From contig JBHGBL010000008.1 of NCBI GenBank assembly GCA_041947015.1, positions 5,878 to 69,877 on the forward strand: 64,000 nucleotides of DNA. The letters are read 5' to 3'. Positions 31,506 to 48,579 of this stretch are shown in pieces. The notes under the pieces were generated by a model, which was not told the origin of the DNA, ran no database searches, and worked only from the letters and a program-made list of their open reading frames with translations. Source of the stretch: Vicinamibacterales bacterium. GTDB taxonomy: Bacteria > Acidobacteriota > Vicinamibacteria > Vicinamibacterales > Fen-181. Each line of letters begins with the position of its first letter. Within the stretch, counting starts at the first letter, position 1. The translations under genes and the position numbers were made by a program.

Positions 31506-31718
31506 ATGATTCAGACATTGGCTTTCAAAGTGGCCGGAATGACGTGCGGCGGGTGCGAGAACGCCGTGAAGCGCACGATCGCTCAGCTGCCCGGCGTCAT
31601 ATCGGTGACTGCTTCCCACAGCGATGGCAGGGTCGAAGTGACCTGCGACGACGAGTCCGTGACTCGTGAGGTCATCGCGGACAGAATACGGAGAACAGGC
31701 TACGAGGTCACCCCATGA
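31506..31718 (+). CDS. Heavy-metal-associated (CopZ-like) chaperone
   Basis: GMTCGGC motif, 70 aa, ends GYEV. Confidence 0.9.
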   Translation: MIQTLAFKVAGMTCGGCENAVKRTIAQLPGVISVTASHSDGRVEVTCDDESVTREVIADRIRRTGYEVTP

Positions 31719-32874
31719 TCTGCCTGGCCAGTGTCTGAAGCTGCATGTTCGACGTGCCCTCGTAAATCTGTCCTATCTTCGCGTCGCGGTAGAGCTTTTC
31801 GACAGGGTAGTCCTTTGTGTACCCGTACCCGCCGAACAGCTGCACCGCAAGCGATGTCACGTGCTCGGCCGCGTCGGACGCGTACAACTTGCACATCGCC
31901 GCCTCGCGCAGGAATGGGCGGCCTGCGTCCCTCAGACGAGCCGCGTTGTAGACCAGCAGCCGAGCCGCCTCGAGTTCGACGGCCGCCCTCGATATCTGGA
32001 ACTGCACGCCCTGGAAGTCTGCGATCGCCCGGCCGAACTGCTTCCTTTCCTTGACGTAGCTGACCATGTGGTCGAAAGCGCCCTGCGCCAGGCCGAGCAT
32101 CTGCGCGCCAATCCCTATACGTCCTTCGTTCAGCGTCTCGATGGCGACCTTGTACCCCTTGCCGACCTCGCCTAGCACGTTCTCGCGCGGGACGCGGCAG
32201 TCTTCGAGCAGCAGCTCGCACGTGCTGCTCGCCCGGATGCCGAGCTTGTCCTCTTTCTTGCCCACCGTGAACCCGGGAAGTCCACGCTCGACGACGAACG
32301 CGGTGATTCCGCGGTAGCCCGCCTGCGGGTTGGCATTTGCGAAGACGATGAAGATGTCGGCCTCGTTTGCCGATGAGATCCAGAGCTTGCGGCCCGTCAG
32401 CACGAACGAGTCGCCGTCCGATACCGCGCGGGTCGCCATCGCGAATGCATCGCTTCCAGCCCCCGCCTCGGAGAGCGCATAGGCGCCGACGGTGTCCGCG
32501 GATAGCCGCTTCAGGTAGCGCTGTTTCTGCCCCTCGGTGCCCCATCGGAGCAGCGCGTTCGTGACGAGGGTGTTCTGCACGTCCACCAGCAGCGCAACAG
32601 CAGGGTCCACCCTCGAGAGCGACTCGACGACGAGAACGGCGTGGAAGAAGCTGGCGCCAGCGCCGCCGTAAGCTTCGGGCACCTCGATACCCATTATGCC
32701 AAGGCCGAAGAGCTCGTCTATGAGCGAACGGGGCATCTTCGCCTGTTCGTCCATCTCCCGGACAAGCGGCCGGATGCGCTGGTCGGCGAACTCGTAGACG
32801 CTGTCCCGCAGGATGGTCTCATCTTCCGCCAGCGCCGTGAGCGGCTCTGCGGAACCAGTTGTCCGGCTGACCAT
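31708..32874 (-). CDS. Acyl-CoA dehydrogenase (short/branched-chain type)
   Basis: VDVQNTLV, YALSEAGAGSDAF, KEDKLGIRASST, RDAKIGQIYEGTSN. Confidence 0.93.
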   Translation of the reverse strand: MVSRTTGSAEPLTALAEDETILRDSVYEFADQRIRPLVREMDEQAKMPRSLIDELFGLGIMGIEVPEAYGGAGASFFHAVLVVESLSRVDPAVALLVDVQNTLVTNALLRWGTEGQKQRYLKRLSADTVGAYALSEAGAGSDAFAMATRAVSDGDSFVLTGRKLWISSANEADIFIVFANANPQAGYRGITAFVVERGLPGFTVGKKEDKLGIRASSTCELLLEDCRVPRENVLGEVGKGYKVAIETLNEGRIGIGAQMLGLAQGAFDHMVSYVKERKQFGRAIADFQGVQFQISRAAVELEAARLLVYNAARLRDAGRPFLREAAMCKLYASDAAEHVTSLAVQLFGGYGYTKDYPVEKLYRDAKIGQIYEGTSNMQLQTLARQIMG

Positions 32875-33015
32875 TGGGCGCCTCCTCCCAAGGTGGCTCA
32901 ATGGTATCATCAACTCAGGGGCGATTCGGCAGGGGCGGGTTTACCGCCGGTCGTCTGCCCGCAGAAACATCCCCGTGCGTTCGGAACGCCGGAATGGTCC
33001 CTGGTTGGGGCAGTG

Positions 33016-35160
33016 ATGAGACAGCAGGTGCGAGCGATCCTCGTTGCGGCGGCGCTGGCGGTTCTGTTTCTCGTTCCGGCAGGCAGAGCCCAGGAGCCGC
33101 AGACTGGGCAGCCGGCCGGCAAGCCAAAAGCACAGCAATCCGAAGAGAAGGCACGGCAATCAGGCCAGCAGGCTCAGCAACAGCCGCCGACCTTCCGCGC
33201 GGGAATCAACTTCGTTCGCGTGGACGTGATCGTCACCGACAAGAGGGGCGAGCCGGTGAGCGATCTCCGGCTGGAGGACTTCGAGGTCACCGAGGACGGC
33301 AAGCCCCAGAGAATAGAGACGTTCAAGCTCGTGCGGATCGGCGAAGAAGTCTCTGCCGTGCCCCCGCGCCAGATCCGCACCGCCTACGACGAGGAAAGCG
33401 AGGCAGCGCGGGACGACGTGCGGCTGTTCGCCATCTTCCTGGACGACTACCACGTGAGGCTGGGGGCGAGCATGGCGGTCCGCGAGCCGCTGAAGCGCTT
33501 CATACAGACTTCGCTCGGGCCGTCAGACATGGTGGCGCTCATGTACCCGCTCACGCCACTCAGTGACGTGAGGATGAGCCGCGACCGCGATGCCGTCATG
33601 GGCGCGATCGACAAGTTCGAGGGCCGCAAGTACAACTATCAGCCGCGCAACTACGCCGAGGAGAAGTACGCGATGTACCCGGCCTCGGTCGTGGAACGGA
33701 TCCGCAACCAGGTTTCGATGGGTGCGATCAAGGCCCTCGTCACACGCCTCGGTTCCCTGCGCGAGGGACGCAAGGCGCTCATCCTCGTGAGCGAGGGTTA
33801 CAGCAACTACCTGCCGCCGCAGCTGAGGGACCCGATTGCTTCGATGCCCGGCCTGGGCAACATCGCGCGAGGCCGGCCGGGCTACGACAACCCCGAAACC
33901 GAGGAGCGCGCCGCCTTTTTCGTCAACACCGACATCCAACGCGACCTGCGCGACGTCTTCGACGCCGCGAACCGCAACAACACCGCAATCTACGCGCTCG
34001 ATCCGCGCGGCCTCGCGACTCACGAGTACGACATAAACGAGGGCGTCGGCATGGAGACCGACCGGATGTCTCTCCAGTCCACGATGGATACGCTCCGCGT
34101 GCTCGCGAGCGAGACCGACGGCCGCGCGATCGTCAACCGCAACGACCTCGACGCGGGCTTGAGGCAGGCCGTGAAGGATTCGAGCGCCTACTACCTGCTC
34201 GGCTACAACTCCACCGAAGCGCCCTCGGACGGCAAGTTCCACCAGATAAGAGTCAGGATCAGGCGGCCCGGCGTGCAGGTCCGGGCACGCAAGGGGTACT
34301 GGGCGCTGACGGCCGAAGAACGTGAAACCGCGCTCGCTCCGCCGAAGCCCGGCCCCGCTCCGGCAGTCACCGAGGCGCTCGCATCGATCATAGTCCCGAG
34401 GGGCCGCTTGACGCGGACGTGGATAGGCACGTCCCGTGGCGACAACGGCCGGACGCTCGTGACCTTTGCCTGGGAATCTGTGCCGCCGGCCCCGGGCACT
34501 GCGCCTCGAGCCGAACCGAAGCGCGTGATGTTGACCGCATCGGGTCCAGATGGCCGCCTCTATTTCCGGGGACGCGTGCCCGATGCGTCGCCCGGTGACG
34601 GATCGCCGTCAATGGGAGCGGTCGCGGCGGCTGCCACATCGCAGGCGGCGCGGCCGGCGACTGCCACAGTCCGCGCGCACGCGCGATTCGAAGCCGATCC
34701 CGGGCTGATGCAGATCCGGATCGCCGTAGAGGGAGAGAACGGCCAGGTTCTCGACTCCGAGACGCGCGAGATCTCGGTGCCCGACCTGACCGCCCCGCAG
34801 GTTTCACTCAGCACTCCGGTCGTCTTCCGCGCAAGGAACGCGCTCGAGTTCCGCGCGCTGCTGAACGAATCCGGGGCCATCCCTGCAGCCGGGCGTGAAT
34901 TCAGCCGGACCGAGCGGCTGCTAGTCCGTTTCGACGTCTACGCTCCGGGTACCGAGACGCCAGCCCCGGCGGCGCGGCTCCTCAACCGGACTGGCGCCCC
35001 GATCAACGATCTCCCGGTTCAGCGGGCCGCGGGCGGTGCCGCTTACCAGATAGATCTGCCGCTGGCTGGGCTAGCCGCCGGAGAGTATCTGCTCGAGATC
35101 TCGGTCAAGGCCGATGACGGAGAAGTGAAGCATCTCACCGGGATGAGAATCACGGGGTGA
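33016..35160 (+). CDS. Secreted VWA-domain protein (acidobacterial VWFA type)
   Basis: Signal peptide, PTFRAGINFVRVDVIVTDK, RKALILVSEG, YYLLGY...DGKFHQIRVR...VRARKGY. Confidence 0.88.
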   Translation: MRQQVRAILVAAALAVLFLVPAGRAQEPQTGQPAGKPKAQQSEEKARQSGQQAQQQPPTFRAGINFVRVDVIVTDKRGEPVSDLRLEDFEVTEDGKPQRIETFKLVRIGEEVSAVPPRQIRTAYDEESEAARDDVRLFAIFLDDYHVRLGASMAVREPLKRFIQTSLGPSDMVALMYPLTPLSDVRMSRDRDAVMGAIDKFEGRKYNYQPRNYAEEKYAMYPASVVERIRNQVSMGAIKALVTRLGSLREGRKALILVSEGYSNYLPPQLRDPIASMPGLGNIARGRPGYDNPETEERAAFFVNTDIQRDLRDVFDAANRNNTAIYALDPRGLATHEYDINEGVGMETDRMSLQSTMDTLRVLASETDGRAIVNRNDLDAGLRQAVKDSSAYYLLGYNSTEAPSDGKFHQIRVRIRRPGVQVRARKGYWALTAEERETALAPPKPGPAPAVTEALASIIVPRGRLTRTWIGTSRGDNGRTLVTFAWESVPPAPGTAPRAEPKRVMLTASGPDGRLYFRGRVPDASPGDGSPSMGAVAAAATSQAARPATATVRAHARFEADPGLMQIRIAVEGENGQVLDSETREISVPDLTAPQVSLSTPVVFRARNALEFRALLNESGAIPAAGREFSRTERLLVRFDVYAPGTETPAPAARLLNRTGAPINDLPVQRAAGGAAYQIDLPLAGLAAGEYLLEISVKADDGEVKHLTGMRITG

Positions 35161-35537
35161 CCCTGGCCGCGAGCTCCGGCCACTTTCTCTGGTGCCGTCG
35201 CGCCGGCGGCCTGGCCGGGACTCCCGTCGCGGAAGCCTCCCTTTCCCTGCCCATCCTCTCGCACATTCCCGTACGGTTCCGCCTCGACTTGTGATATATA
35301 GCGGCGGTCATCCGTTCCCGAGGTTCGGCCCCCTTCTCGAGCGACACTTGCCGGGTCTCGTTGGTCGCGACGATTTGTGGCCGGACTTGTGTACCGGGAC
35401 CCTCCGTTGCCGGGGCGCACGGGCAGGAGGCGAACCCGTTTGTCCAGGCCGTTCGGCTTCTGATCCTGTTGCCACGGGAAGGTCGGGGTCTGCTGCCCAC
35501 CTGCACTCGACCAGCGCCGCACGGGTACAAGGCCGGT

Positions 35538-35553
35538 TGGCCTTGCGCCTGCA
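35538..35553 (+). promoter_or_regulatory. Candidate sigma54 promoter of the oxidoreductase/glutamate synthase operon
   Basis: TGGC-CTTGCGC-CTGCA. GG-N10-GC spacing is correct but the match to consensus is imperfect. Confidence 0.45.
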
Positions 35554-35747
35554 GGACGACAATGCGCTCGGCGGTTCGCCGGTTTGCCAACGGATCTCGT
35601 TTTCGCGCTCGCCGGGACCTGCCATCGGCTGGTCCGTAAACGCCCTCCCACTGCCAATTCGATGCGCCGACCGGTTCGTCAGACCGATGGGAAGCCGGCG
35701 GTCCCGAGGCCTCGCAGAGGCCCGTCGTGTCCACATGGAGGAACCAT

Positions 35748-36578
35748 ATGGAAGCGGATAGCGTACCTGCCATCGTCCAGAGATACCGAGGGCAACGAGG
35801 CGCGATGATCTCGATCCTCGAGGAGGTCCAGCAGAAGTACGGCTACCTGCCTGCGGAGGCGCTGCAGGCGGTGGCGCAGGCGATGGACCGCCCGCTCGTC
35901 GATGTCTATGGCCTGGCGACCTTCTACCGATTCTTCCGCCTCGAGCCCCGCGGCAAGCACCTCTGCTCGGTCTGCGTCGGTACGGCGTGCCACGTTCGCG
36001 GAGCCCAGCCGGTCAAGGACGAGTTCGAGAAGCAGCTGCAGGTCAAAGCCGGCGAGACGACTGCCGATGGGGAGTTCACGCTCGAAACGGTGAATTGCCT
36101 CGGAGCATGTGCGCTCGGCCCGGTCGTCGTGATGGACGGCCACTACAACTCCAGCGTCAACGCGACGAAAGTCGGCCAGATCATATCCAAGGCCCGTCTT
36201 GGCACGTCGAAGGCGGACCTTGCGGGTCCGCCCTTCGCGCTGACGGTTGGCTGCTCGCGGTGCAATCACACCCTGATGGATCCGGTCCATCGGATCGACG
36301 ACCTGCCTTCGATACGGCTGACGGTATCCGGGGGCGGTGTCCACGGATGGCTGCGCTTGTCGGCGCTCTACGGCAGCGACAGCCGTGAATCCGAGCATTC
36401 ATACGCCGACCGCGCCATTCTCGACTTCTACTGCCCTCACTGCCACGCGGAGCTCAAGGGTCCGCTGCCGTGCGGCGAGTGCGTGGCTCCGATGGCGACC
36501 ATGATCGTGCGGGAGGGAGGAATCCTGCAGGTGTGCACGCGGAACGGCTGTGCAGGCCACATGTTCGACTTGTCCTGA
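35748..36578 (+). CDS. NuoE/HydC-like [2Fe-2S] subunit with C-terminal Cys-rich extension
   Basis: YGYLP, ATFY..F, CVGTACHVRG...NCLGACALGP. Extra CxxC x3 plus CTRNGC. GGAGG RBS. Confidence 0.9.
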   Translation: MEADSVPAIVQRYRGQRGAMISILEEVQQKYGYLPAEALQAVAQAMDRPLVDVYGLATFYRFFRLEPRGKHLCSVCVGTACHVRGAQPVKDEFEKQLQVKAGETTADGEFTLETVNCLGACALGPVVVMDGHYNSSVNATKVGQIISKARLGTSKADLAGPPFALTVGCSRCNHTLMDPVHRIDDLPSIRLTVSGGGVHGWLRLSALYGSDSRESEHSYADRAILDFYCPHCHAELKGPLPCGECVAPMATMIVREGGILQVCTRNGCAGHMFDLS

Positions 36579-36629
36579 ACCGCTGCCGCCCCGACCGTGT
36601 TCGGGGCCGGCACTCCACAGAGGTTGCGT

Positions 36630-39600
36630 ATGCGAAGGTTGTCTTCCATCGAGGAGCTGAGGGCGTATCGCGCGGTGGTTTTGGACGGGGCCGCGGACAG
36701 CAGGCCGGCGATCGTCGTCTGCGCCGGCACAGCGTGCCAGGCCAGCGGAGCGAACCCCGTGCTGCGCGTCGCCAAGAAACACGTCGTCGAACGCAGGCTC
36801 GGCGACAAGGTGAAGCTTCGGGTTACGGGCTGCCACGGTTTCTGCGAGATGGGTCCGTTCGTGATGACCCAGCCTCAGCAGGCCTTCTACAGCCGGGTGA
36901 AGCTGGACGACGTGCCGAGGATCATCGATGCCGTGGTCGCCGGGGAGTACGTCGAGGAACTGCTCTACCGGGACCCGGTCACTGGCGAGGTCTATAGAAG
37001 CGCCGACGAGATTCCGTTCTTCAAGAACCAGCGCCGGGTCCTGCTCGAGATGAACCGTTACGTCGATCCGATCCGGATCGACACCTACATCGAGCAGGGA
37101 GGCTATGAGGCGTTCGAACGGGTTCTCTCGAAGGGCGATCCCGCCTGGGTGGTAGAGGAGGTGAAACGCTCGGGGCTGCGGGGAAGGGGCGGCGCGGGCT
37201 TCCCGACCGGGAAGAAGTGGGAGATGCTGGCGGCGCAGCCGGATGGCCGCGGGAAGTTCATCGTCTGCAATGCGGACGAGGGCGACCCGGGGGCGTACAT
37301 GGATCGCAGCGTGCTCGAGGGCAACCCTCAGAGCATCATCGAGGGGATGCTGATCGGCGCGTTCGGAACTGGCACGACCAACGGCGCCGTGTACGTCCGG
37401 AACGAGTACCCGCTGGCGGTCAGGCACGTCAGCGTAGCCCTCGCCCAGGCGCGCGACATGGGTCTGGTCGGGCAGAACATCCTTGGCACCGGGTTCTCGT
37501 TCGAGATCTCGATCGTCAAGGGAGCGGGCGCCTTCGTATGCGGGGAGGAAACGGCGCTGATCCGCTCTGTCGAGGGGCGGATGGGCGAGCCGAGGCAGCG
37601 CCCGCCGTACCCCGTTCAGAAGGGCATCGACGGCAAGCCAACGATCATCAACAACGTCGAGACGTGGGCGAACGTTCCGCTCATCTTCCGCGACGGCGCG
37701 GAGAAGTACGCGAGCGTGGGGACCCCGGGCAACGCCGGCTGCAAGATCTTCAGCCTCGTGGGCAAGATCAAGAACACCGGCCTCGTCGAGGTGCCCATGG
37801 GCGTGACGATCAGCGACGTCGTCTACAAGATAGGCGGCGGTCCTCCGGGCAGGGCGAAGATAAAGGCCGTGCAGACTGGAGGACCGTCGGGCGGCTGCAT
37901 TCCCGCGCGGATGTTCGACCTGCCCATCGATTTCGACAGTCTGACCAAGGCGGGTTCGATCATGGGTTCGGGCGGCATGATCGTCATGGACGAGAACACG
38001 TGCATGGTCGATGTCGCCAAATACTTCATGAAGTTCCTCAAGGACGAGTCGTGCGGCAAGTGCTTCACCTGCCGCAAGGGCACGCAGCGGATGTACGAAA
38101 TCCTCGACGACATCTCGACGGGCCGGGCCACTCTCGACCAGGTAGAGCTGCTTCGCGAGCTGGCTGTAGTCGTGAAGGACACGACAATGTGCGGGCTGGG
38201 CCAGACGGCGTCGAACCCGGTTCTCAGCACGCTGCAGTACTTCCCGGATGAGTACCGGCGGCACGTGATAGAGAAGAAATGCGACGCCTTCGTCTGCAAG
38301 GATCTCGTGGGGGCGCCTTGCCAGGCGGCCTGCCCGATAGGGACGGAGGCATGGCGCTACGTCGCGCACATCGCACGGGGCGAGTGGGAGGATGCGTACA
38401 GGGCAATCCGGGAAGCCAACCCGTTCCCATCGGTCTGCGCGCGGGTCTGTGACCACCCGTGCGAGGAGCGCTGCCGCCTGGGGACGACCGGCAGCAGGGC
38501 CGTCGCCATCCGGGCGTTGAAGCGGATTGTGACCGACACCGTGGACCCGGCGACTTATCGCCCGGTCCGCAGGGCAGGCGCTGCGATGGAAGTGCAGAAG
38601 GTGGCCGTTGTGGGCTCCGGTCCCGCCGGCCTGACCGCTGCGCACTACCTCTCCCTCGACGGCTACGACGTCACGGTATTCGAGGCCGACAGCAAGCCGG
38701 GCGGGATGCTCGTCAGCGGCATCCCCTCATACAGGCTGAAGCGGGACGTCCTGAAAAAGGAAATCGACTCGCTCCTCGACGATCACGTCAAGCTGCGCTG
38801 CAACGCGGCGCTGGGCCACGACTTCTCGCTCGAGAGTCTCCTCAGCGACGGCTTCAAGGCGGTGTTCCTGGCGCTCGGTGCCCACAAGAGCCGGCGGTTG
38901 AACATCGAGGGCGAGGACATCGCCGGTGTACAGCCGGCCATGCAGTTCCTGAAGGCCTTCAACCTGCGCGGCACCGTCAGCGCCCGCGGCCGCGTCGGAG
39001 TGATCGGCGGGGGCAACTCGGCGGTCGACGCCGCACGCGTCGCGCTCCGGCAGGAGGGAGTCGAGAGCGTGACGATCTTCTACCGCCGGACCCGGCAGGA
39101 CATGCCGGCGCTGCGCGAGGAAGTCGCATCGGCGGTTGCCGAGGGAATCGGGCTGGAGTGCCTCGTGTCGCCGATCCGCGTGCTCTCGCGGCATGGCCAC
39201 CTCACCGGCATCGAGTGCGTGCGCAACGCGCTTGGACGCGTGGACAGTAGCGGGCGCGGGCAGCCATCGCCTGTGCCAGGGACCGAGTTCACGGTGCCCC
39301 TGGATTACCTGATAGTGACGATTGGCGACGAGCCGGACATCGACTACGTGAGATCGATGGGACTGAAGGTGACCGACCGCGGGACCCTCTGGGTGGACCC
39401 GGAGACCATGCAGACGAGCCGGCCGGGGATCTTCGCCGGCGGCGACGTGGTGACCGGGCCGAATACGGTGGTGCAGGCGATTGCGGCAGGCAAGAAGGCA
39501 GCGATGGTGATAGACCGCTACCTGAGGGGCGAGGAGCTGGTGTCGAGACCGGCAGCGCCGCGGCTGCCGCAGGTCTATGTCGAGCCGGTCGCCGCTGGAG

Positions 39601-39797
39601 GGGAAGCTACGAAGGTGGATAGGGTGGCGCCGCCGACATTGCCGCCCGACGTACGGAAGCGCAGCTTCGCGGAGGTGGAGCTCGCTATCACGGCGGAAGA
39701 CGCCCGCAGGGAGGCGGCCAGATGCCTGCGGTGCGACCTGGAGTTCACGCGCCCGGCGCAGCAGGTCGTGATTCGGGCGACTGGAGAGCCGACATGA
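36630..39797 (+). CDS. NuoF/HydB-like FMN/NADH subunit fused to a GltD-like FAD/NADPH domain
   Basis: N-terminal thioredoxin-like 2Fe-2S (CAGTAC...GCHGFC), SGLRGRGGAGFPTG, NADEGDPGAYMD, CGEET, GGPSGG, ESCGKCFTC. Then PCQAACP/CARVC..PCEERC, GSGPAG, GGGNSA..YRRT, FAGGD. Confidence 0.92.
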   Translation: MRRLSSIEELRAYRAVVLDGAADSRPAIVVCAGTACQASGANPVLRVAKKHVVERRLGDKVKLRVTGCHGFCEMGPFVMTQPQQAFYSRVKLDDVPRIIDAVVAGEYVEELLYRDPVTGEVYRSADEIPFFKNQRRVLLEMNRYVDPIRIDTYIEQGGYEAFERVLSKGDPAWVVEEVKRSGLRGRGGAGFPTGKKWEMLAAQPDGRGKFIVCNADEGDPGAYMDRSVLEGNPQSIIEGMLIGAFGTGTTNGAVYVRNEYPLAVRHVSVALAQARDMGLVGQNILGTGFSFEISIVKGAGAFVCGEETALIRSVEGRMGEPRQRPPYPVQKGIDGKPTIINNVETWANVPLIFRDGAEKYASVGTPGNAGCKIFSLVGKIKNTGLVEVPMGVTISDVVYKIGGGPPGRAKIKAVQTGGPSGGCIPARMFDLPIDFDSLTKAGSIMGSGGMIVMDENTCMVDVAKYFMKFLKDESCGKCFTCRKGTQRMYEILDDISTGRATLDQVELLRELAVVVKDTTMCGLGQTASNPVLSTLQYFPDEYRRHVIEKKCDAFVCKDLVGAPCQAACPIGTEAWRYVAHIARGEWEDAYRAIREANPFPSVCARVCDHPCEERCRLGTTGSRAVAIRALKRIVTDTVDPATYRPVRRAGAAMEVQKVAVVGSGPAGLTAAHYLSLDGYDVTVFEADSKPGGMLVSGIPSYRLKRDVLKKEIDSLLDDHVKLRCNAALGHDFSLESLLSDGFKAVFLALGAHKSRRLNIEGEDIAGVQPAMQFLKAFNLRGTVSARGRVGVIGGGNSAVDAARVALRQEGVESVTIFYRRTRQDMPALREEVASAVAEGIGLECLVSPIRVLSRHGHLTGIECVRNALGRVDSSGRGQPSPVPGTEFTVPLDYLIVTIGDEPDIDYVRSMGLKVTDRGTLWVDPETMQTSRPGIFAGGDVVTGPNTVVQAIAAGKKAAMVIDRYLRGEELVSRPAAPRLPQVYVEPVAAGGEATKVDRVAPPTLPPDVRKRSFAEVELAITAEDARREAARCLRCDLEFTRPAQQVVIRATGEPT

Positions 39798-40471
39798 TTG
39801 ACCTCAAGATCAACGGCATCCCGGTTTCGGTTGAAAAGGGCACGACGCTGCTGGAGGCCGCGACGTTCCTCGGATTCCCGATCCCCACGTTGTGCCATAT
39901 GGAGGGCCTGACGCCCTACGGCGCGTGCAGGTTGTGCGTGGTGGAGATAGGCGAGGAGCCGAAGGCCAGGCTCGTCTCTTCATGCACGTACCCGGCCGAG
40001 CCCGGCCTCGTCGTGCGAACGGCATCGGCGCGCGTCGTCAGGGCGCGAAGGATGATCATCGAGCTGCTGCTGGCCTCGTGCCCGCAGTCGAAGACAATCC
40101 AGGACCTTGCGTCCGCCCACGCCGTGAGACAGCAGCGGTTCAAGCAGGAGTACGAGGACTGCATCTTGTGCGGCCGCTGCATCCGGATGTGCAAGGAGCA
40201 GATGGCGGCGGGCGCCATCGGGTTCCGCAGCCGCGGCGAGAACCGCAGCCTTGGGACCCCGTTCGACAGGAGCTCCGAGGTGTGCAGGCTGTGCGGTGGA
40301 TGCATCTACGTGTGTCCGGCCTGCCAGCTGCGCTGCACCTACAGCGACCCGGAGAAGGTCATCTGCGGGGGCTGCGCCAACCTCGGGCCGCCCTGCCTGG
40401 AGAAGGAACAGTTCGACGACATGATGTGCTACATGAAGCCCTGTGTGGCTTGCGAGATCCGTAAAGACTGA
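39794..40471 (+). CDS. NuoG/HydA N-terminal-like FeS protein with no catalytic domain
   Basis: IPTLC...GACRLCVVE...SC (2Fe-2S), CILCGRC..MC, CRLCGGC.YVCP, plus an 8-Cys tail. ATGA coupling with the upstream gene. Confidence 0.88.
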   Translation: MIDLKINGIPVSVEKGTTLLEAATFLGFPIPTLCHMEGLTPYGACRLCVVEIGEEPKARLVSSCTYPAEPGLVVRTASARVVRARRMIIELLLASCPQSKTIQDLASAHAVRQQRFKQEYEDCILCGRCIRMCKEQMAAGAIGFRSRGENRSLGTPFDRSSEVCRLCGGCIYVCPACQLRCTYSDPEKVICGGCANLGPPCLEKEQFDDMMCYMKPCVACEIRKD

Positions 40472-40492
40472 CCGGAGAAGGAGGAGACGGAC

Positions 40493-42094
40493 ATGTCATT
40501 CTCGAGAATCAACGCTTCGGCCGCCACCCTCACCAAGAACCGCACGGAAGAGTCCATCGTCCCGATCTCCGGCATGTGCGTTACCTGCGTGGACGGGTGC
40601 GTGGGGATGTGCGAGATAGGAAAGTCGGCCTACCGCGGCCACGAGGTGATCTACCCGCAGCCGTTCGGCGTGATAACAACGGCATGCGAGAAGGACTACC
40701 CGCTCGACTACTCGCACTTCAACATCATGGGAACTGCCGTCGGGGCACACGGCGTCGAGGCCGACTCCGACAAGGCGATATTCCCGGCCGTCAGCCTGGA
40801 GACGAGGGTGGGTCGGGAGCTCGACTTGAAGTTCAAGCTGCCCTGGATCATCTCTGGCATCGGATCCACGAACATCGCGAAGAACAACTGGGAGGGGCTG
40901 GCGATAGGAACGGCACTCTCCGGCGTCGGCCTGACGATCGGGGAGAACGTTGCGGGAATGGACCCTGAGACCGTCCTGAAGCACGGGCGCGTCGTCGACA
41001 CCGTGGACCTGAAGAAACGCGTGAAACTCTACACGGACCACCAGCGGGACGGCTATGGCGCGATCATCGTGCAGGCGAACATCGAGGACACGAGGCTGGG
41101 CGTGCAGGAGTACGCCATCGATAAGCTCGGCGTTCAGGCAGTCGAGCTCAAATGGGGGCAGGGTGCGAAGGACATCGGCGGCGAGGTGAAGATCAACAAC
41201 CTCAAGAAGGCCCAGATGCTCTACGAGCGGGGCTACATCGTCCTGCCCAATCCGACCGACGCGAACGTCATCCGGGCCTTCGAGCGGGGTGCGTTCAAGG
41301 AGTTCGAGAGGCACTCGCGCGTGGGCATGGTGACAGAGGAAGGCTTCGCCGCCCGCGTCGAGGAGCTGAGGAAGGCCGGGGCCAAGTACATCTTCCTGAA
41401 GACCGGCGCTTACCGACCGGCCGACCTCGCCCGGGCAGTCGCCTTCGCGTCGAAGTACGGGATCGACATGCTGACGATCGACGGCGCCGGAGGGGGAACC
41501 GGCATGAGTCCCTGGCACATGATGAACGAGTGGGGCGTGCCCACGGTCGAGCTGCACTCGCTTGCGTACCAGTACGCGAAGAGAATCGCGGACGCCGGCG
41601 GCTACGTGCCACCCCTCTGCTTCGGCGGCGGGTTCACCTTCGAGGATCAGATTTTCAAGGGCCTGGCCCTCGGCGCGCCCTTCGTGAAGATGATTGGACA
41701 GGCCAGAGCACCCATCGCGGCAGCAATGGTCGGGAAGACCATCGGGCGGGCCATCGAGGAGAACCAGATCCCGGTCTACGTCGAGAGGTTCGGCAACACG
41801 AAGGACGAGATCTTCGTGACGGCAACCGAACTCCGCAAGCACCTGGGCGACGATGAGTTCGAAAAGCTCCCGGCAGGGGCCATCGGGCTCTACACTTACT
41901 ACGAGCGGCTGGCGCAGGGCCTGAGGCAGCTGATGGCGGGCAGCCGCAAGTTCACCATCGCTCACATTTCGCGCGGCGACATCGCCGCGCTGACCCAGCA
42001 CGCGGCGGCGGTCAGCGGCATCCCGTTCATAATGGACGTGGACAAGGAAGAGGCAGACTCGATCATCGCGAGCGCGCTCCCCTCGCACGTGTAG
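40493..42094 (+). CDS. Stand-alone FMN-binding glutamate synthase domain protein (GltB2-like)
   Basis: ELKWGQGAKDIGGE, LKTG, IDGAGGGTG, FKGLALGA, GLRQLMAG. N-terminal CVTCVDGC..MC. AAGGAGG RBS. Confidence 0.88.
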   Translation: MSFSRINASAATLTKNRTEESIVPISGMCVTCVDGCVGMCEIGKSAYRGHEVIYPQPFGVITTACEKDYPLDYSHFNIMGTAVGAHGVEADSDKAIFPAVSLETRVGRELDLKFKLPWIISGIGSTNIAKNNWEGLAIGTALSGVGLTIGENVAGMDPETVLKHGRVVDTVDLKKRVKLYTDHQRDGYGAIIVQANIEDTRLGVQEYAIDKLGVQAVELKWGQGAKDIGGEVKINNLKKAQMLYERGYIVLPNPTDANVIRAFERGAFKEFERHSRVGMVTEEGFAARVEELRKAGAKYIFLKTGAYRPADLARAVAFASKYGIDMLTIDGAGGGTGMSPWHMMNEWGVPTVELHSLAYQYAKRIADAGGYVPPLCFGGGFTFEDQIFKGLALGAPFVKMIGQARAPIAAAMVGKTIGRAIEENQIPVYVERFGNTKDEIFVTATELRKHLGDDEFEKLPAGAIGLYTYYERLAQGLRQLMAGSRKFTIAHISRGDIAALTQHAAAVSGIPFIMDVDKEEADSIIASALPSHV

Positions 42095-42259
42095 ACACCC
42101 TCAGGCCTCCCAGCAGCCTGCAGCAGCCGGGGCGACTTGGACGCGCCCCGGCTGCAGTTCGCCGAGTTCCCTGCGATCCCACCCAAGGCAGGCGAGGAGT
42201 CCATCTGCATGCCCGCATCTCCCGATGGCTTCGGGACCCGGCCGAATACTGACCGGTAG

Positions 42260-43744
<1,485 letters not shown>

Positions 43745-43772: not shown

Positions 43773-45521
43773 ATGGACGAACGAGACAGGCCCGCCGGGC
43801 GTGTCCGCGGCTTCAGGAGCATGGTGCCGTTCGGGTTCCGCGACCTGGTCGACACCATGCTCGTCGAGACCGGAGGCGAACAGCCCGGTGCCGCGATTCT
43901 CGGGCGCATCTGCGAGTCCCTGCTCCGTTTCTCCGGTGCGGACGCCGCCAGCCTGCTCGTCGAGCAGGATGGCGAGGCTACGCGCTGCCTGGCACATGTC
44001 TCCCAGGCAGGAGTTCGTTCGGGGGCGGGCGCCGGGCCGGGCGCCGTCTTCGAAACTTCTGAACGGCCGGAAGCCGATCTCGTCCCCGAAGTGGTCCTGC
44101 GCGCCGTTCTTTCCGGGAGCGTTGCCGCTCCCGCGGAATCCTGCACCCGCGGCGGCAGCTTCTGGACGGGCGATACGGCCAAGCCGATCCTGCTTCGCGA
44201 CCCGGCCGAACACGGTCCCGGCATGCGCACGGTCATAATCGGCGGCAGCTACCCGTCGCTCGCCGTCGTACGGATCCCGATCAGCCGCCGGGCTCGCGGA
44301 GCATTTATCCTTGCGAGTCTTCGCAGGGATTACTTCAACTTCGAGGACATACTGACCTTCGAGACCGTCGGACAGACGCTCGGAGTTGCCTTTGCCCACC
44401 AGCGTGCGCAGTGGGCCCTGCGAGAACGCGTCAAGGAACTGACGTGCCTGTACGGAATCGCTGCCGTGTCGGGGCGGCCCGGAGTCGTACTCGAGGACTG
44501 CCTGCGCGAGATCGCGGCGTTGCTTCCCCCGGCGTGGCAGTACCCGGAAGTGACTGCGGCCAGGATCGTCCTCGACGGCCGCGAGTTCCTGACGCCGGGT
44601 TTCACGGACGCGCCCGCTCGGCTCTCTGCGGCGATTGTAGTAAACGCCGTGGAGAGGGGAGCCGTGGAGGTCGTCTACACTCGGAGGCCGCCTGGCAAGG
44701 ACGGCGACCCTTTCCTCGAGGAAGAGCGCAGCCTGATCGACGAGGTAGCGCGCCGCGTGAGCCTCATAGTCGAGCGCAGGGAGGCCGAAGTCGAGGCCGC
44801 GCGCCTCCAGGAGCAGCTTCGCCACGCGGAGCGGCTCGCGACCGTCGGCCAGCTTTCTGCAGGCGTCGCCCACGAGCTCAACGAGCCACTCGCCGCGGTG
44901 CTCGGCTTCGCGGAACTAGTGAAGACGGCTCCCGACCTCCCCGGCGCTGCAGCGGACGATGTCGATCGCATCATCAAAGCGGCGTTGCACGCCCGCGAGA
45001 TCATTCGGAAACTGATGATATTCACGCGGCAGATGCCGACCACCAAGGTAGCCTGCGACCTCAACCAGATCGCCCGCGAAAGCCTCTACTTCCTCGAGTC
45101 GCGGTGCCGCACGCAGGGCATAGACCTCTCGCGGCAGCTCGAGGAGGGTCTGCCTCTGGTCATGGCCGATCCTTCACAGATTCAGCAGGCGCTGGTGAAT
45201 CTGGTAGTCAATGCCATCCAGGCAACGCCATCCGGCGGTGCGATCAAGGTCAGCACCCGCTCGGAGGCTGATCGGGTCGTGCTCGCAGTGGAGGACACAG
45301 GTCCAGGAATGACGCCTGACGTGCAGCGGAAGCTGTTCACTCCGTTCTTCACGACCAAGGACGTCGGGCAGGGCACCGGCCTGGGCCTCGCCGTCGTTCA
45401 CGGCATTGTCGCGGCGCATGGCGGGACGGTTGACGTCAGGAGCGGGGTTGGTGCGGGTTCGACCTTCGAGATCGCAATACCGGTCGAGCGACCCGCCCCC
45501 GACCCGCTGGAGGCGCGTTGA
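43773..45521 (+). CDS. Cytoplasmic sensor histidine kinase with two GAF-like domains
   Basis: H-box GVAHELNEPL, NLVVNA, DTGPG, PFFTTK, GTGLGL. No TM segments. ERVKELTCLY GAF-like module. Confidence 0.92.
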   Translation: MDERDRPAGRVRGFRSMVPFGFRDLVDTMLVETGGEQPGAAILGRICESLLRFSGADAASLLVEQDGEATRCLAHVSQAGVRSGAGAGPGAVFETSERPEADLVPEVVLRAVLSGSVAAPAESCTRGGSFWTGDTAKPILLRDPAEHGPGMRTVIIGGSYPSLAVVRIPISRRARGAFILASLRRDYFNFEDILTFETVGQTLGVAFAHQRAQWALRERVKELTCLYGIAAVSGRPGVVLEDCLREIAALLPPAWQYPEVTAARIVLDGREFLTPGFTDAPARLSAAIVVNAVERGAVEVVYTRRPPGKDGDPFLEEERSLIDEVARRVSLIVERREAEVEAARLQEQLRHAERLATVGQLSAGVAHELNEPLAAVLGFAELVKTAPDLPGAAADDVDRIIKAALHAREIIRKLMIFTRQMPTTKVACDLNQIARESLYFLESRCRTQGIDLSRQLEEGLPLVMADPSQIQQALVNLVVNAIQATPSGGAIKVSTRSEADRVVLAVEDTGPGMTPDVQRKLFTPFFTTKDVGQGTGLGLAVVHGIVAAHGGTVDVRSGVGAGSTFEIAIPVERPAPDPLEAR

Positions 45522-45522
45522 G

Positions 45523-46890
45523 ATGCCGGCCGTAGAACCCCGGGGCCGCCTGCTCGTGGTAGACGACTCGGCCGATACGACCGAGCTTCTGCGGCGACAC
45601 CTGGTCTCGCGCGGCTACGAGGTGCTGACGGCGGGCGACGTTCGGCAGGCGCTGGCCGTCCTCGATCGCCACCAGGTGGACCTGGTGATAACCGACCTCA
45701 AGATGCCGGGTGCTTCGGGGCTGGAACTCGTGAGGCACGTGATGGCCAACGTGCAGGGCACCCAGGTGATCATGATAACGGGGTACCCCAGCGTCGAAGG
45801 CGCCGTCCAGGCGGTGAAGCTCGGCGCCGAGGAATACCTGCCCAAGCCCTTCACGAAGGAAGAGTTGTTCGCGGCGGTGGGGCGGGCTATGGAGAGGGCA
45901 CGAGGGGCCCGCACCGGACTTCTCGCGGTGCCGTTCGAGCCCCCGAACCCGCTGCGCCTGGTCGCCGCCAGTGAATCGATGCGGCGCGTGATGTTGGCTG
46001 TCCACGAGGCCGCTGCCGGCGCCGGCCCGGTCGTCATCGCAGGCGAGGAGGGCACGGGCAGGCAGCTGCTGGCTCTGGCCCTCCACCACGCGGGCGCCCA
46101 TGCGAACGGGCCGTTCGTCGTCGTGAATTGCGATCTCCCGGAGGATGTCCTCGAGAAGCGGATGTTCCCCGAGCCTGCGGCGACCGAGAGCGGGCTGCCC
46201 GCAAGTCTGTCGTGGGTTGAAGAGGCGAGGGGCGGAACGCTTCTGCTCCGTGACAGCCCGGCGCTGCCGGCCAGGCTCCGGGCGCGGCTGGTCCGCGCGA
46301 TCGATGCGAGTAGAGCCAGCGAACCGGCGGCCGCCAGGTTTCGCGTGGTAGGGACATGCGGCCCGGGGATGTCCCCGGCCGAGCACCTCCCCGGCGCCGC
46401 TGGTGCCGCTGGCGGACTCCACGCCGCAGTCTTCGGGGAGCTTGGCACCCTGCCACGAGCACGGACCATCATCGTTCCGCCGCTGAGGGAGCGGGGCGAC
46501 GACGTCCTCCTTCTCGCTCGCCGCTTTCTCGCCGTGTTCGCCGCGGAGTCGGGCCGCGCAGTGCCGTCGCTCTCGGAGGAGGCAGCCGATTGCTTCAAGC
46601 GGTACCCGTGGCCAGGGAACATAGTCGAGCTTCGAAACGTCGTGCGCGGAATCCTTGCAAGAACCGCCGCGGGCGTCATACGGTCAGGGGACCTGCCGGC
46701 AGGTCTGCGCGCCGGAGCCTCCCTGCGCGCTGACCTCATGCGCTCCCTTGCCGACGTCGAGGCCGAGTACGTGAAGGCGGTCGTCGCCAGCGTAGGCGGC
46801 AACAAGACGAGAGCGGCCGAGATACTCGGCATCAACCGCAAGACGTTGAGGGACAAGCTGCGGCAGAGGGGCCAGGCGGCGCCCTCCTGA
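45523..46890 (+). CDS. NtrC-like response regulator (REC-AAA+-Fis HTH) with degenerate ATPase
   Basis: Intact REC (VDD, TDLKMP, KPF) and HTH (GNKTRAAEILGI). AAA+ lacks GAFTGA, Walker A Lys and Walker B DE. Confidence 0.88.
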   Translation: MPAVEPRGRLLVVDDSADTTELLRRHLVSRGYEVLTAGDVRQALAVLDRHQVDLVITDLKMPGASGLELVRHVMANVQGTQVIMITGYPSVEGAVQAVKLGAEEYLPKPFTKEELFAAVGRAMERARGARTGLLAVPFEPPNPLRLVAASESMRRVMLAVHEAAAGAGPVVIAGEEGTGRQLLALALHHAGAHANGPFVVVNCDLPEDVLEKRMFPEPAATESGLPASLSWVEEARGGTLLLRDSPALPARLRARLVRAIDASRASEPAAARFRVVGTCGPGMSPAEHLPGAAGAAGGLHAAVFGELGTLPRARTIIVPPLRERGDDVLLLARRFLAVFAAESGRAVPSLSEEAADCFKRYPWPGNIVELRNVVRGILARTAAGVIRSGDLPAGLRAGASLRADLMRSLADVEAEYVKAVVASVGGNKTRAAEILGINRKTLRDKLRQRGQAAPS

Positions 46891-46920: not shown

Positions 46921-48579
46921 ATGCGAAGCACCCATCCGTCCGAAGATGTCACCGTCTACGGCGACGGCGAGCCCGGCGGAAAGGGGGCGGGGCTGATCGC
47001 CGTGAACGGCTGGCGCCTGCCCTGCACTTCCCGGTTGCCCACGATGATCCTCGCAACCGGTTTCTACGACCGCTACCTGGAACGCGGTTGCAGGCTTTGC
47101 GGCGACGACTTCATCGTCCTCAGCGAGATCCTCCAAGCTCTCGGCGAAAGGCCGATCGGGGTGCGGTCTTCGGCAACCGACGAGGCCTGGTCGCCGGGGG
47201 AAGGCCGGACGATCCACGCCGGCGAGAACCTGTCGTTCATGCTTCCCAACAATCACGAGGACAGGGCGGTCCGCCTGCGCCAGCTCGCGCTCGCCGTCCA
47301 GCACGTATACGACGACTTCCACCGAAGGCACGGGCCCGGCTCGAGTGCACGGATGGGAATCGTCATCAACCCAATACCGGGGCTCTTCGATGACACGGCG
47401 GCGGGCCCTTTCTACTACCCGTACGTCTCCGGTGTCGCTGACTCGTTCTTCCCGTACGCACTCAAGAGCCAGGACCCCAGAGAGGGCTACGGGCGCATCG
47501 CCTTCGGCCACGGCTACGCCACGGTGCTGGACGACTTCCCGGTCATCCAGATGGCGACAATCCGGAACCCGCTGCCGCTGAACCTGCTCCAAACCGGCCG
47601 CGGGCAGCAGTTCTTCTACGCTCTTGACCTCACGAAGAACTGGGACCTCCAAGGTGACGAACTCGAGACGATGAAGAAGCTGCACGTGAGGCACGCCAGC
47701 TTCCACCGGGTGAGGCTGCTCGGGGTGCAGGGCCAGATCGTGACGATCGAGAACCTGGTGCAGCAGGATCAATTCGGGTTCCGGACCTCGCTGGCGCGCA
47801 TCATGGAGGAGATAGGTTCCAGGTCGGCCTCGAACTTCCAGATCGAATTCGTCTTCAACCTGGACTTCAGGCGGAAGCCGTGCCGCGAGGGTACTTTCCA
47901 CGTCGTGCAGCTGACCTGCATGCCAAAGACGGCGTGGGACCCGATCGAGATGCCGGCCGGAGCGCTCCGCACGTACCTGTGCACCTCCAGCCTGCAGGGA
48001 CATGGCGTGAGGCGGGGCATCAGGTACGCGGTCGTCGTGTCGCCGTTCCTCTACTCGAAGGACCAGCACGACGCGGTCAGGCGGCGGCTGGCAGAGATCA
48101 ACAGGGGGTTTCTCGGGAGCCGTGAGGAGTACATCCTCGTCGTTCCGGGAAGGCTCGGAAGCAGGAACCGTGATTGGGGCATCCACGTGGAATACGGTGA
48201 CGTCAGCCAGGCGGCGGCGATTTTCGAGTACGGGGTAGACATAGCCGGGCGGGTGCAGCCGCTTCCGGAGGAGAGCGAGATGACCGGCGGCACCTACGGC
48301 AGCCATTTCCTCTATGTCGTGCTGGGAGGCTACAGCGAGGATCAGAGGCGACTGCAGGCCAGGATGCACGGGACGCAGGGCACGCACTTCTTCACAAACC
48401 TCATGAGCGGCAACGTCGTCTACGCTTACGTGTCGCCCACCCAGGACAGCCTCGACCCGTGGTTCTTCTCGCCGCCCGCAGCGGGCGAAGCGGTCTACGT
48501 GCTAACCTTTCCGAGGCCGGCCTCGGTCTTTGCCGACGCGATCAGGCAGAGGTGCCTCGTCGTCGAGGAAGCGGCGTAG
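46921..48579 (+). CDS. PEP-synthase/PPDK N-terminal-like ATP-grasp protein with C-terminal His-motif domain (divergent copy)
   Basis: GGKGAG, GVRSSATDE, SGVADS, IEFV, VVQL. C-terminal PGRLGS...GSHFL...GTHFF. Confidence 0.8.
   Translation: MRSTHPSEDVTVYGDGEPGGKGAGLIAVNGWRLPCTSRLPTMILATGFYDRYLERGCRLCGDDFIVLSEILQALGERPIGVRSSATDEAWSPGEGRTIHAGENLSFMLPNNHEDRAVRLRQLALAVQHVYDDFHRRHGPGSSARMGIVINPIPGLFDDTAAGPFYYPYVSGVADSFFPYALKSQDPREGYGRIAFGHGYATVLDDFPVIQMATIRNPLPLNLLQTGRGQQFFYALDLTKNWDLQGDELETMKKLHVRHASFHRVRLLGVQGQIVTIENLVQQDQFGFRTSLARIMEEIGSRSASNFQIEFVFNLDFRRKPCREGTFHVVQLTCMPKTAWDPIEMPAGALRTYLCTSSLQGHGVRRGIRYAVVVSPFLYSKDQHDAVRRRLAEINRGFLGSREEYILVVPGRLGSRNRDWGIHVEYGDVSQAAAIFEYGVDIAGRVQPLPEESEMTGGTYGSHFLYVVLGGYSEDQRRLQARMHGTQGTHFFTNLMSGNVVYAYVSPTQDSLDPWFFSPPAAGEAVYVLTFPRPASVFADAIRQRCLVVEEAA

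Follow-up and report, generated by a model that had tools for sequence, protein, structure and literature searches.

We describe a four-gene operon in a Vicinamibacterales bacterium that probably encodes a single redox enzyme, built on the core of the Bfu (HydABC-like) family and equipped with a divergent glutamate synthase flavin domain. The genes, here called E, F, G and B, lie closely packed and head to tail at 35748-42094 on the + strand of the window (the whole 64,000-nucleotide stretch analysed), as judged from a listing of open reading frames (ORFs) and from Pfam and NCBIfam scans. That the four products work as one enzyme, with B as its substrate-handling module, seems likely to us from the invariant gene order, the coupled starts, the fact that G has no catalytic domain, the family-specific Cys-rich stretches added to E, G and B, and the strong conservation of both G and B. 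What the enzyme does is a more tentative matter. Our best guess is a Bfu-type complex in which the third-substrate module would reductively aminate 2-oxoglutarate with ammonia; it is based on the homology of B to the flavin mononucleotide (FMN) domain of glutamate synthase (GltS) and on the repeated linkage of the B family to glutamate dehydrogenase (GDH), glutamine synthetase and nitrogen regulators.

The layout of the locus is that of a tightly coupled transcription unit. Gene E (35748-36578, + strand) begins at an ATG with GGAGGA 7 nt upstream (an alternative GTG lies at 35727). The ORF of F spans 36597-39797, with the ATG at 36630 as the likely start of the gene (36630-39797, + strand) and a product of about 1055 residues. 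An ATGA overlap joins the stop of F to the start of G (39794-40471, + strand), and the ATG of B (40493-42094, + strand), preceded by a strong ribosome-binding site, lies 21 nt beyond the stop of G. An initial annotation of this DNA had described NuoE-, NuoF- and NuoG-like genes in a tight operon, followed 21 nt on by a stand-alone GltB FMN domain, and both the ORFs and the domain scans bear that description out.

Subunit E is a thioredoxin-like [2Fe-2S] protein of the NuoE/HydC/BfuC kind. PF01257 covers residues 15-156 (E=1.9e-49), the domain that carries the C1 [2Fe-2S] cluster in the NuoE-like subunit BfuC, and the best NCBIfam models are HoxE and NuoE. Beyond it lies a C-terminal extension of about 120 residues with 8 Cys, which resembles a zinc ribbon but gives sub-threshold matches only. 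The extension is conserved, in that tblastn alignments run to residue ~282 in related loci.

The initial annotation took F for a plain NuoF-like protein. This is correct for its NuoF-like half and overlooks the remainder, because F is a fusion of a HydB/BfuB-like NADH/FMN subunit to a C-terminal GltD/NfnB-like module. From the N-terminus, F consists of a thioredoxin-like [2Fe-2S] domain (PF01257 at residues 38-112), the 51K FMN domain (Complex1_51K, E=3.6e-43), an SLBB domain, the NuoF [4Fe-4S] region (NADH_4Fe-4S, E=1.1e-31) and the GltD/NfnB-like module. The first four include the N-terminal [2Fe-2S] domain, the NuoF-type FMN/NADH site and the B1 [4Fe-4S] cluster of BfuB. The best matches of the first 570 residues among sequences in the PDB are B subunits of bifurcating enzymes (7t2r_B, 7q4v_B, 9n5u_B NfnB and 8a6t_B), with alignments that begin at residue ~36; 7t2r_B aligns to residues 36-571 at 2e-198, and the Nfn/Stn chains 9n5u_B and 8oh5_B reach 3.1e-183 and 3e-164. 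Complex I NuoF chains are weaker, at about 1e-104.

Similarity to HydB stops at residue ~571-578, where the GltD-type Fer4_20 domain starts. The GltD/NfnB-like module occupies residues ~564-1048 (Fer4_20, E=5.5e-22; Pyr_redox_2, E=1.9e-29; NF009410, E=1.3e-132) and contains 8 Cys in the Fer4_20 region, enough for two [4Fe-4S] clusters, a flavin adenine dinucleotide (FAD) motif GxGxxG, and an NADPH motif GGGNSA followed by FYRR. Its closest PDB chains are 9bov_A (1e-101), 9n5u_A NfnA (4.2e-97, residues 569-984) and 8oh5_C (1.6e-93), and NfnB 4ylf_B is also among them. Kremp et al. relate the GxGxxA form of the nucleotide motif to NADP(H) (PMC7483475). What the module replaces is the last domain of HydB-type proteins, 50-80 ferredoxin-like residues with two [4Fe-4S] clusters (B3/B4) that form the low-potential exit to ferredoxin, according to PMC11829005; there, and in PMC9304861, this domain is treated as required for ferredoxin coupling. 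A relative of F that lacks GltD, at locus L018 (616 residues), has two CxxCxxCxxxC motifs at its end and keeps the complete HydB architecture.

Subunit G is a minimal iron-sulfur protein of 225 residues, resembling BfuA, the N-terminal part of NuoG, and HoxU. It contains one [2Fe-2S] site (Fer2_4, E=2.7e-17) and two [4Fe-4S] motifs of the dicluster type (Fer4_7, E=3.5e-07), and an alignment of relatives reveals a family-specific Cys-rich C-terminal stretch with 8 conserved Cys. The Pfam and NCBIfam scans found no catalytic domain in it, whether H-cluster, NiFe or pterin partner, and the match of the FeFe group A6 model is confined to the first ~206 positions of the model; the NuoG-like protein does end after its Fe-S domains, as the initial annotation had stated. 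An AlphaFold2 model of G alone was poor (mean predicted local distance difference test score, pLDDT, 52.7, with residues 114-225 below 50) and was not used. Having only Fe-S motifs and a family-specific Cys-rich tail, G fits the adaptor role described for BfuA in PMC9304861, where BfuA does no more than relay electrons between the BfuBC core and a third-substrate module, and the third substrates vary. The premise that HydABC-like cores serve a variable third substrate was thus soundly based in the Bfu literature, and Table 1 of that paper contains no amino-acid, 2-oxoglutarate or FMN triose-phosphate isomerase (TIM)-barrel third reaction.

The initial annotation had made its proposal depend on conservation of the operon linkage, and the linkage is conserved. 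In a collection with one genome per species, at least 583 stretches encode a relative of B, and the best 80 loci were analysed. E-F-G-B occurs in the same order and on the same strand in 60/60 loci where 5 kb or more of sequence precedes B, and G adjoins B in 78/80 loci; the contigs of the remaining two end less than 200 nt before B. The carriers are labelled as metagenome-assembled genomes (MAGs) of Acidobacteriota, Planctomycetota, Zixibacteria, KSB1, Ignavibacteriales, Syntrophorhabdus, Smithella, Scalindua and others, and the recurrence of the arrangement is far beyond chance. Across the loci, median identity to the window is 80.0% for G, 79.7% for B, 66.3% for the NuoF part, 60.2% for the GltD part and 54.6% for E, so that B and G are the most conserved subunits.

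The C-terminal part of F varies. F was found in 71 loci, with the GltD module in 50 and a retained ferredoxin domain without GltD in 21. The two architectures interleave on a tree of the NuoF part (quick maximum likelihood, with SH-aLRT support only), which requires 11 parsimony changes, at least 5 of them forced by well-supported branches. The interleaving indicates repeated replacement of the ferredoxin-like domain by the GltD module and vice versa. One MAG contig (L011) has a GltD-less E-F-G-B followed by glutamine synthetase and, about 5 kb on, a second E and a GltD-fused F cut by the contig end.

Could E, F and G simply be a rearranged Nfn-type NADH/NADPH(/ferredoxin) transhydrogenase, with B independent and merely co-transcribed? 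The appeal of this idea is that F holds both an NADH/FMN site and a GltD-type NADPH/FAD site, which are the two nucleotide sites of Stn/NfnABC according to PMC7483475. We nevertheless regard it as very unlikely. The 21 of 71 relatives without GltD, and hence without an NADPH site, still keep E-F-G-B, and the forms with and without GltD are intermingled on the quick F tree; moreover, G would be a chain of clusters with no destination, and B and G are precisely the best conserved partners. A third plain transhydrogenase would also be improbable in a genome that already contains two such loci. Its Stn/Nfn-Bfu-type locus (L097, G000:C36:46000-58000) encodes a HydC-like protein of 154 residues, a HydB-like protein of 627 residues that ends in the ferredoxin domain, and a large subunit combining Fer2_4, Fer4_20, Pyr_redox_2, Fer4_Nqo3 and molybdopterin-like domains, preceded by a HydA-like protein of 426 residues. 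Its NfnAB-like pair (L098, G000:C1:181500-187000) consists of a GltD-like protein of 506 residues and a 287-residue protein with DHODB_Fe-S_bind.

If B is part of the enzyme, its own ancestry bears on the reaction. B matches PF01645 (Glu_synthase) with E=1.5e-15 and 57.7 bits against a cut-off of 20.4, the FMN synthase domain, and its AlphaFold2 model (mean pLDDT 84.9) is an FMN TIM barrel. In a 27-member alignment of the family, the N-terminal CX2CX3CX3C motif (C29, C32, C36 and C40) is nearly invariant, and the other family motifs are ELKWGQGAKDIGGE, FERHSR and DGAGGGTGMSP. Comparison by hhalign with 8 canonical GltB FMN domains from related genomes gave 288 aligned columns at E=2e-4, with invariants common to both families: GE, KxxQGAK..G, R(HS), K303, GGTGxSP and a terminal R.D. 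BLASTP of B against one canonical GltB aligned the GGTGxSP stretch alone (E=0.003), and a PDB sequence search with B returned chance-level matches only (best E=0.036). By structure, the GltS of A. brasilense (6s6s_A, Z 20.7) gives the longest alignment to B, 342 residues, and among the Foldseek matches ferredoxin-dependent GltS (1ofd_A) is the closest in sequence, at 17% identity. Judged by PF01645, hhalign and the shared motifs, B is a true but distant homologue of the GltB FMN domain, and the identity first assigned to the fourth gene stands. The Lys of QGAK and the Arg of RHS presumably bind 2-oxoglutarate in GltS, although we found no open paper confirming these residue roles.

The B family is compact, with 1099 representatives at E<=1e-3 and 178 at E<=1e-30 among 1.84 billion. 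More than 8000 relatives are present in a large protein collection, the best 120 being about 80% identical and labelled from many phyla. Our search found no longer, fused forms of B, a negative that is weak evidence. In a quick tree, the B proteins linked to the operon group closely together in a single clade whose branches are very short (support 99). Stand-alone B proteins of archaeal type make up its sister clade within the B family (support 100), and canonical GltB FMN domains are separated from the family by very long branches.

In bacteria and archaea alike, members of the B family have GDH or glutamine synthetase genes as neighbours much more often than would be expected. GDH genes of two subfamilies occur within the fetched flanks of 9/80 bacterial loci, in three arrangements, and also in the window; glutamine synthetase occurs within 1/80. 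The 75 downstream ORFs scanned at the bacterial loci include GDH (3), asparaginase/glutaminase (2), glutamine synthetase (1), NrpR (1), 2-oxoglutarate dehydrogenase (1), Glx-tRNA synthetase (1) and PPDK_N proteins (6); the rest are unrelated. When P0123, a family member with 49% identity, served as the query of a second scan, the 80 loci obtained belonged to Asgard archaea, Methanocellales, Bathyarchaeia, Hadarchaeia, Altiarchaeota, Anaerolineae and Bipolaricaulota. These stand-alone archaeal/Chloroflexi-clade proteins (e.g. Methanocella sp. MCL-LM, L163) are 45-51% identical to the operon protein over the full length and share its N-terminal Cys motif. They often sit beside nitrogen genes (GDH in 12/80 loci, glutamine synthetase in 15/80), and, unlike the operon B, none of the 80 has an E, F or G neighbour. 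The idea that the B family is itself the FMN subunit of archaeal GltB was rejected, as Methanocella and a Freyarchaeia genome carry both proteins. The ordinary split archaeal glutamate synthase (GOGAT) is present in 2/5 of the stand-alone-B genomes checked, and its presence alongside stand-alone B marks the B family as a separate paralogue.

The window genome (4.39 Mb, 100% complete by marker genes) has glutamine synthetase, several 2-oxoacid:ferredoxin oxidoreductases and two GDH-family genes, both inside the 64-kb window. In the whole genome there is no GATase_2 (glutaminase/type-2 amidotransferase) and no GXGXG (PF01493) domain, and PF01645 matches are weak only. Most carriers lack canonical glutamate synthase, which counts in favour of the proposed amination: canonical GltB is present in only 8/50 carrier genomes and any GXGXG match in 13/50. 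In a sample of 201 genomes of the phylum, B occurs in 19, canonical GltB in 63 (among them the unpublished genome G099) and both in one, so that GltB is found in 1/19 carriers and 62/182 non-carriers.

Several observations count against the amination of 2-oxoglutarate, or against parts of the scheme in which we place it. The PF01645 match spans residues 279-400 of B only, and the hhalign probability of B against GltB is 45.6%, a remote similarity. The Pfam scan found neither a GATase_2 nor a GXGXG domain in B, and the GC..M..CH..TCP stretch that binds the [3Fe-4S] cluster of GltB aligns by hhalign to a Cys-free stretch. By fold, the FMN dehydrogenases of alpha-hydroxy acids and IDI-2 outscore GltS (Z 25.7-24.6 versus 20.7), and GltS ranks only 27th in Foldseek with the B model. 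The stand-alone clade indicates that B-type proteins can function in the absence of E, F and G. A GDH-family gene is present in 50/50 carrier genomes, and a role for E-F-G-B as the sole route to glutamate was accordingly rejected. Canonical GOGAT is also missing from 120/182 non-carriers of the phylum sample; since, in addition, the genomes are kin and not independent, the anticorrelation between B and GltB is weak and suggestive only. With GltD in the place of the ferredoxin-facing clusters of F, the ferredoxin coupling assumed in the initial annotation is doubtful for the window version. Finally, the 2-oxoglutarate/glutamate couple lies near -0.14 V, and reductive amination would need no low-potential donor.

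Some of these points would fit the same four-subunit complex if B reduced or oxidised another carboxylate at its FMN (2-oxoglutarate/2-hydroxyglutarate, pyruvate/lactate or another imino acid), glutamate being merely a neighbouring step in the pathway. The top fold matches of B are lactate, mandelate and glycolate FMN dehydrogenases and IDI-2; in the Foldseek and VIA-align rankings the leading places go to alpha-hydroxy-acid dehydrogenases, IDI-2 and IMPDH (Z 25.7-23). The likeness to GltB is distant and the parts for glutamine use are missing, and the ubiquitous and often adjacent GDH could supply 2-oxoglutarate to B. The genome also contains two adjacent ORFs (400 and 383 residues, G000:C12:61099-62461) with weak, borderline matches (27 and 29 bits) to HGD-D, the 2-hydroxyglutaryl-CoA dehydratase family. 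We nonetheless consider a different carboxylate rather unlikely. B falls in PF01645 and has no match to PF01070 (FMN_dh) at E <= 1e-3, even though proteins of the latter kind give top fold scores (Z 25.4-24.6), and the motifs it shares with GltB, QGAK and RHS included, span the whole domain. The glutamine synthetase genes adjacent to B in the archaeal clade point to nitrogen assimilation and not to fermentation, and hydroxyglutarate-pathway genes do not recur in the neighbourhoods scanned.

The glutamate reaction of the initial annotation keeps its support from the glutamate and nitrogen genes linked to the B family, and is weakened by the loss from B of glutaminase, GXGXG and [3Fe-4S] features. 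In the reductive amination that we favour, E, F, G and B would make up a single soluble flavin/iron-sulfur complex of Bfu type, with an assembly, stoichiometry, electron path, substrate and direction that we infer from the domains, synteny, homology and context observed. NADH would be oxidised at the FMN of F, and electrons would pass through the NuoF-type [4Fe-4S] cluster to the Fe-S chain of G, then to the N-terminal 4-Cys cluster of B and its FMN. There, B would make glutamate by reducing 2-iminoglutarate, itself the product of 2-oxoglutarate and ammonia that is either free or released by a separate glutaminase; ammonia is proposed as the nitrogen donor because a glutaminase domain is lacking. 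The resulting enzyme would be a glutamate synthase without an amidotransferase domain. In the GltD-less version (21/71 relatives), the C-terminal clusters of BfuB would link NAD(H) and the B reaction to ferredoxin; in the window version, like that of 50/71 relatives, the GltD-type module would link them to NADP(H). The swapping of ferredoxin domain and GltD suggests that NADP(H) takes, in the window version, the place that ferredoxin has in the other.

In which direction would such an enzyme run? The initial annotation had written a freely reversible conversion of 2-oxoglutarate and NH3 to glutamate, which is thermodynamically unlikely given the potential of the couple. The physiological potentials in Table 1 of PMC9304861 are -280 mV for NAD, -380 mV for NADP and -500 mV for ferredoxin. 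Set against these values, glutamate oxidation alone could not reduce both NAD+ and ferredoxin, and the B reaction should run reductively or be coupled. One further elaboration, which we regard as quite improbable, is an energy-coupling glutamate synthase, in which the strongly exergonic reduction of 2-iminoglutarate would drive flavin-based bifurcation of NADH at the flavin-cluster site of F/E and send the second electron pair uphill. That pair would go to ferredoxin where F has the HydB C-terminus and to NADP+ in the GltD-fused window version, and the repeated swapping of ferredoxin domain and GltD would then mark interchangeable low-potential partners. In this way low-potential reductant would come from ammonium assimilation itself, and in the opposite direction glutamate oxidation would be pulled by reduced ferredoxin or NADPH.

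The closest known systems share parts with E-F-G-B but not the whole. Stn/NfnABC of Sporomusa ovata, Caldicellulosiruptor saccharolyticus and Thermococcus sibiricus has in common with it the NuoE-like, HydB-like NADH/FMN, NuoG-like Fe-S and GltD/NfnB-like FAD/NADPH parts. However, its GltD lies inside a large A subunit with a formate dehydrogenase (FDH)-like domain, as described in PMC7483475, whereas here it is C-terminal on F in the place of B3/B4; G, with its 225 residues, has no FDH-like domain; and Stn/NfnABC lacks the fourth, GltB-like subunit. HydABC-type [FeFe] and [NiFe] hydrogenases share the E/F/G order, the tight operon and the best PDB matches of F, and the GltD-less relatives of F retain their full HydB architecture, including the C-terminal two-cluster domain. 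The differences lie in the third-substrate module, here an FMN TIM barrel, in the absence from G of any H-cluster, NiFe or pterin partner, and in the additional Cys-rich C-terminal domain of E.

On the glutamate synthase side, canonical GltBD likewise pairs a GltB-type FMN domain with a GltD-type FAD/NADPH/2x[4Fe-4S] protein, and the QGAK, RHS and GGTGxSP motifs are common to both. The contention that the operon is unlike GltBD needs revision to this extent, since F of the window carries a fused GltD-like module. Nevertheless, the amidotransferase, central and GXGXG domains and the [3Fe-4S] Cys motif are all missing from E-F-G-B, where B has its N-terminal 4-Cys motif instead; the GltD module is fused to a NuoF-like protein and is dispensed with in 21/71 relatives. 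Ferredoxin-dependent GltS (Fd-GltS, 1ofd) similarly has an FMN barrel fed through an Fe-S cluster by a low-potential donor, but it is a single chain of 1500 residues with a glutaminase domain and an ammonia tunnel, draws its electrons from free ferredoxin and has no NADH module. E-F-G-B thus lacks the features that define GltS (amidotransferase, GXGXG, [3Fe-4S]) as well as those of Stn/NfnABC (the position of GltD and the large A subunit), and is best filed as a Bfu-type system with parts borrowed from glutamate synthase. Full-text literature searches, supplementary tables aside, found no description of a GltB-like module on a NuoEF/HydBC core; the word 'glutamate' is absent from the main text of PMC9304861, whose supplementary clade tables may list such clusters as uncharacterised.

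If the proposed reaction is correct, many anaerobic bacteria use an unrecognised enzyme at the point where carbon, nitrogen and redox metabolism meet; the stretches found come from candidate phyla, Planctomycetota, Acidobacteriota, syntrophs and an anammox genus. It would carry out a glutamate-synthase-type reaction through a bifurcating-type NADH module, with neither a glutaminase nor the ATP-dependent cycle of glutamine synthetase and GOGAT, and would add a new third substrate to the Bfu family. The two forms of F would represent a natural experiment on the wiring of the low-potential branch, a ferredoxin-facing domain in one and an NADPH flavoprotein module in the other, with a bearing on the debated Bfu mechanism. 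The annotation of nitrogen assimilation would also change for many genomes that seemingly lack GOGAT.

Downstream of B, a GC-rich stem-loop at 42123-42156 (+ strand; minimum free energy -37 kcal/mol for 42095-42175, z = -2.1, with no T run) is the probable end of the operon. The next gene encodes an NADP-type GDH (42383-43744, + strand; NF006929, E=4.7e-231). It has TTGACA-N17-TAAAAC upstream and its own ribosome-binding site, and by these sequence signals is a transcription unit separate from E-F-G-B. A two-component system follows it, consisting of a sensor histidine kinase (43773-45521, + strand; HisKA and HATPase_c) and a response regulator of the sigma-54 activator family (45520-46890, + strand). 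Such genes are conserved beside the operon, the histidine kinase in 39 loci and a sigma-54-type response regulator in 37. The window kinase is 46-52% identical to the kinase that precedes the operon in other loci, and is its orthologue.

Sequences resembling the -24/-12 elements of sigma-54 promoters are enriched upstream of E across the loci, with a score of at least 13 in 23/49 regions versus 2/51 coding control segments. The window regulator is 43% identical to the response regulator of L068, which is an intact orthologue, but its AAA+ module is degenerate: Walker A reads GEEGTGRQ, the GAFTGA loop is replaced and the DE of Walker B is lost. Correspondingly, the -24/-12 match before E is weak (TGGCCTTGCGCCTGCA at 35537-35552, + strand, 211 nt before the E start, score 12, a consensus match only). 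The exact sigma-54 consensus has three matches in the window, none near the operon and with no excess over chance, and a scan for sigma-70 promoter and terminator consensus sequences found no more sites than in shuffles.

The tight linkage of the two-component system raises the question of whether the complex is a sensor of redox or nitrogen status, or an electron-input module for an unlinked partner, with B binding 2-oxoglutarate without turnover. NrpR and PPDK_N-domain proteins, present in some neighbourhoods, would suit such a role. We consider it extremely improbable, however: the FMN-binding and active-site-like motifs of B are fully conserved, four cofactor-rich subunits would be a costly design for a sensor, and the domain scans of the four proteins turned up no domain for DNA binding or signalling.

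Other proteins recur around the operon. In 18 loci a small protein of about 110-150 residues lies between the regulator and E (e.g. L079:4714-5070), with two repeats GLCxxCx5C...GGVWHCEEY and no Pfam family. It has no counterpart in the window, and may be an operon-associated carrier of metal or Fe-S clusters. The PPDK_N proteins (650-1100 residues) recur downstream of B in L003, L017, L020, L027, L052 and L054, and some of those adjacent to the operon begin with LKELxCLY...WQYPE, a motif also present in the sensor part of the kinase. A 552-residue ORF in the window (46921-48579, + strand), with no Pfam hit, is a 25%-identical relative of these proteins. Two upstream features do not recur in related loci, namely an 839-residue ORF without a Pfam family (32641-35160, + strand) and an acyl-CoA dehydrogenase gene on the opposite strand (31708-32913, - strand); a terminator-like hairpin at 35164-35182 follows the former, upstream of E. 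The second GDH-family gene of the genome lies about 16 kb downstream of the operon, at ~58453-59187 on the - strand (G000:C35:64330-65064; PF00208, 246 bits).

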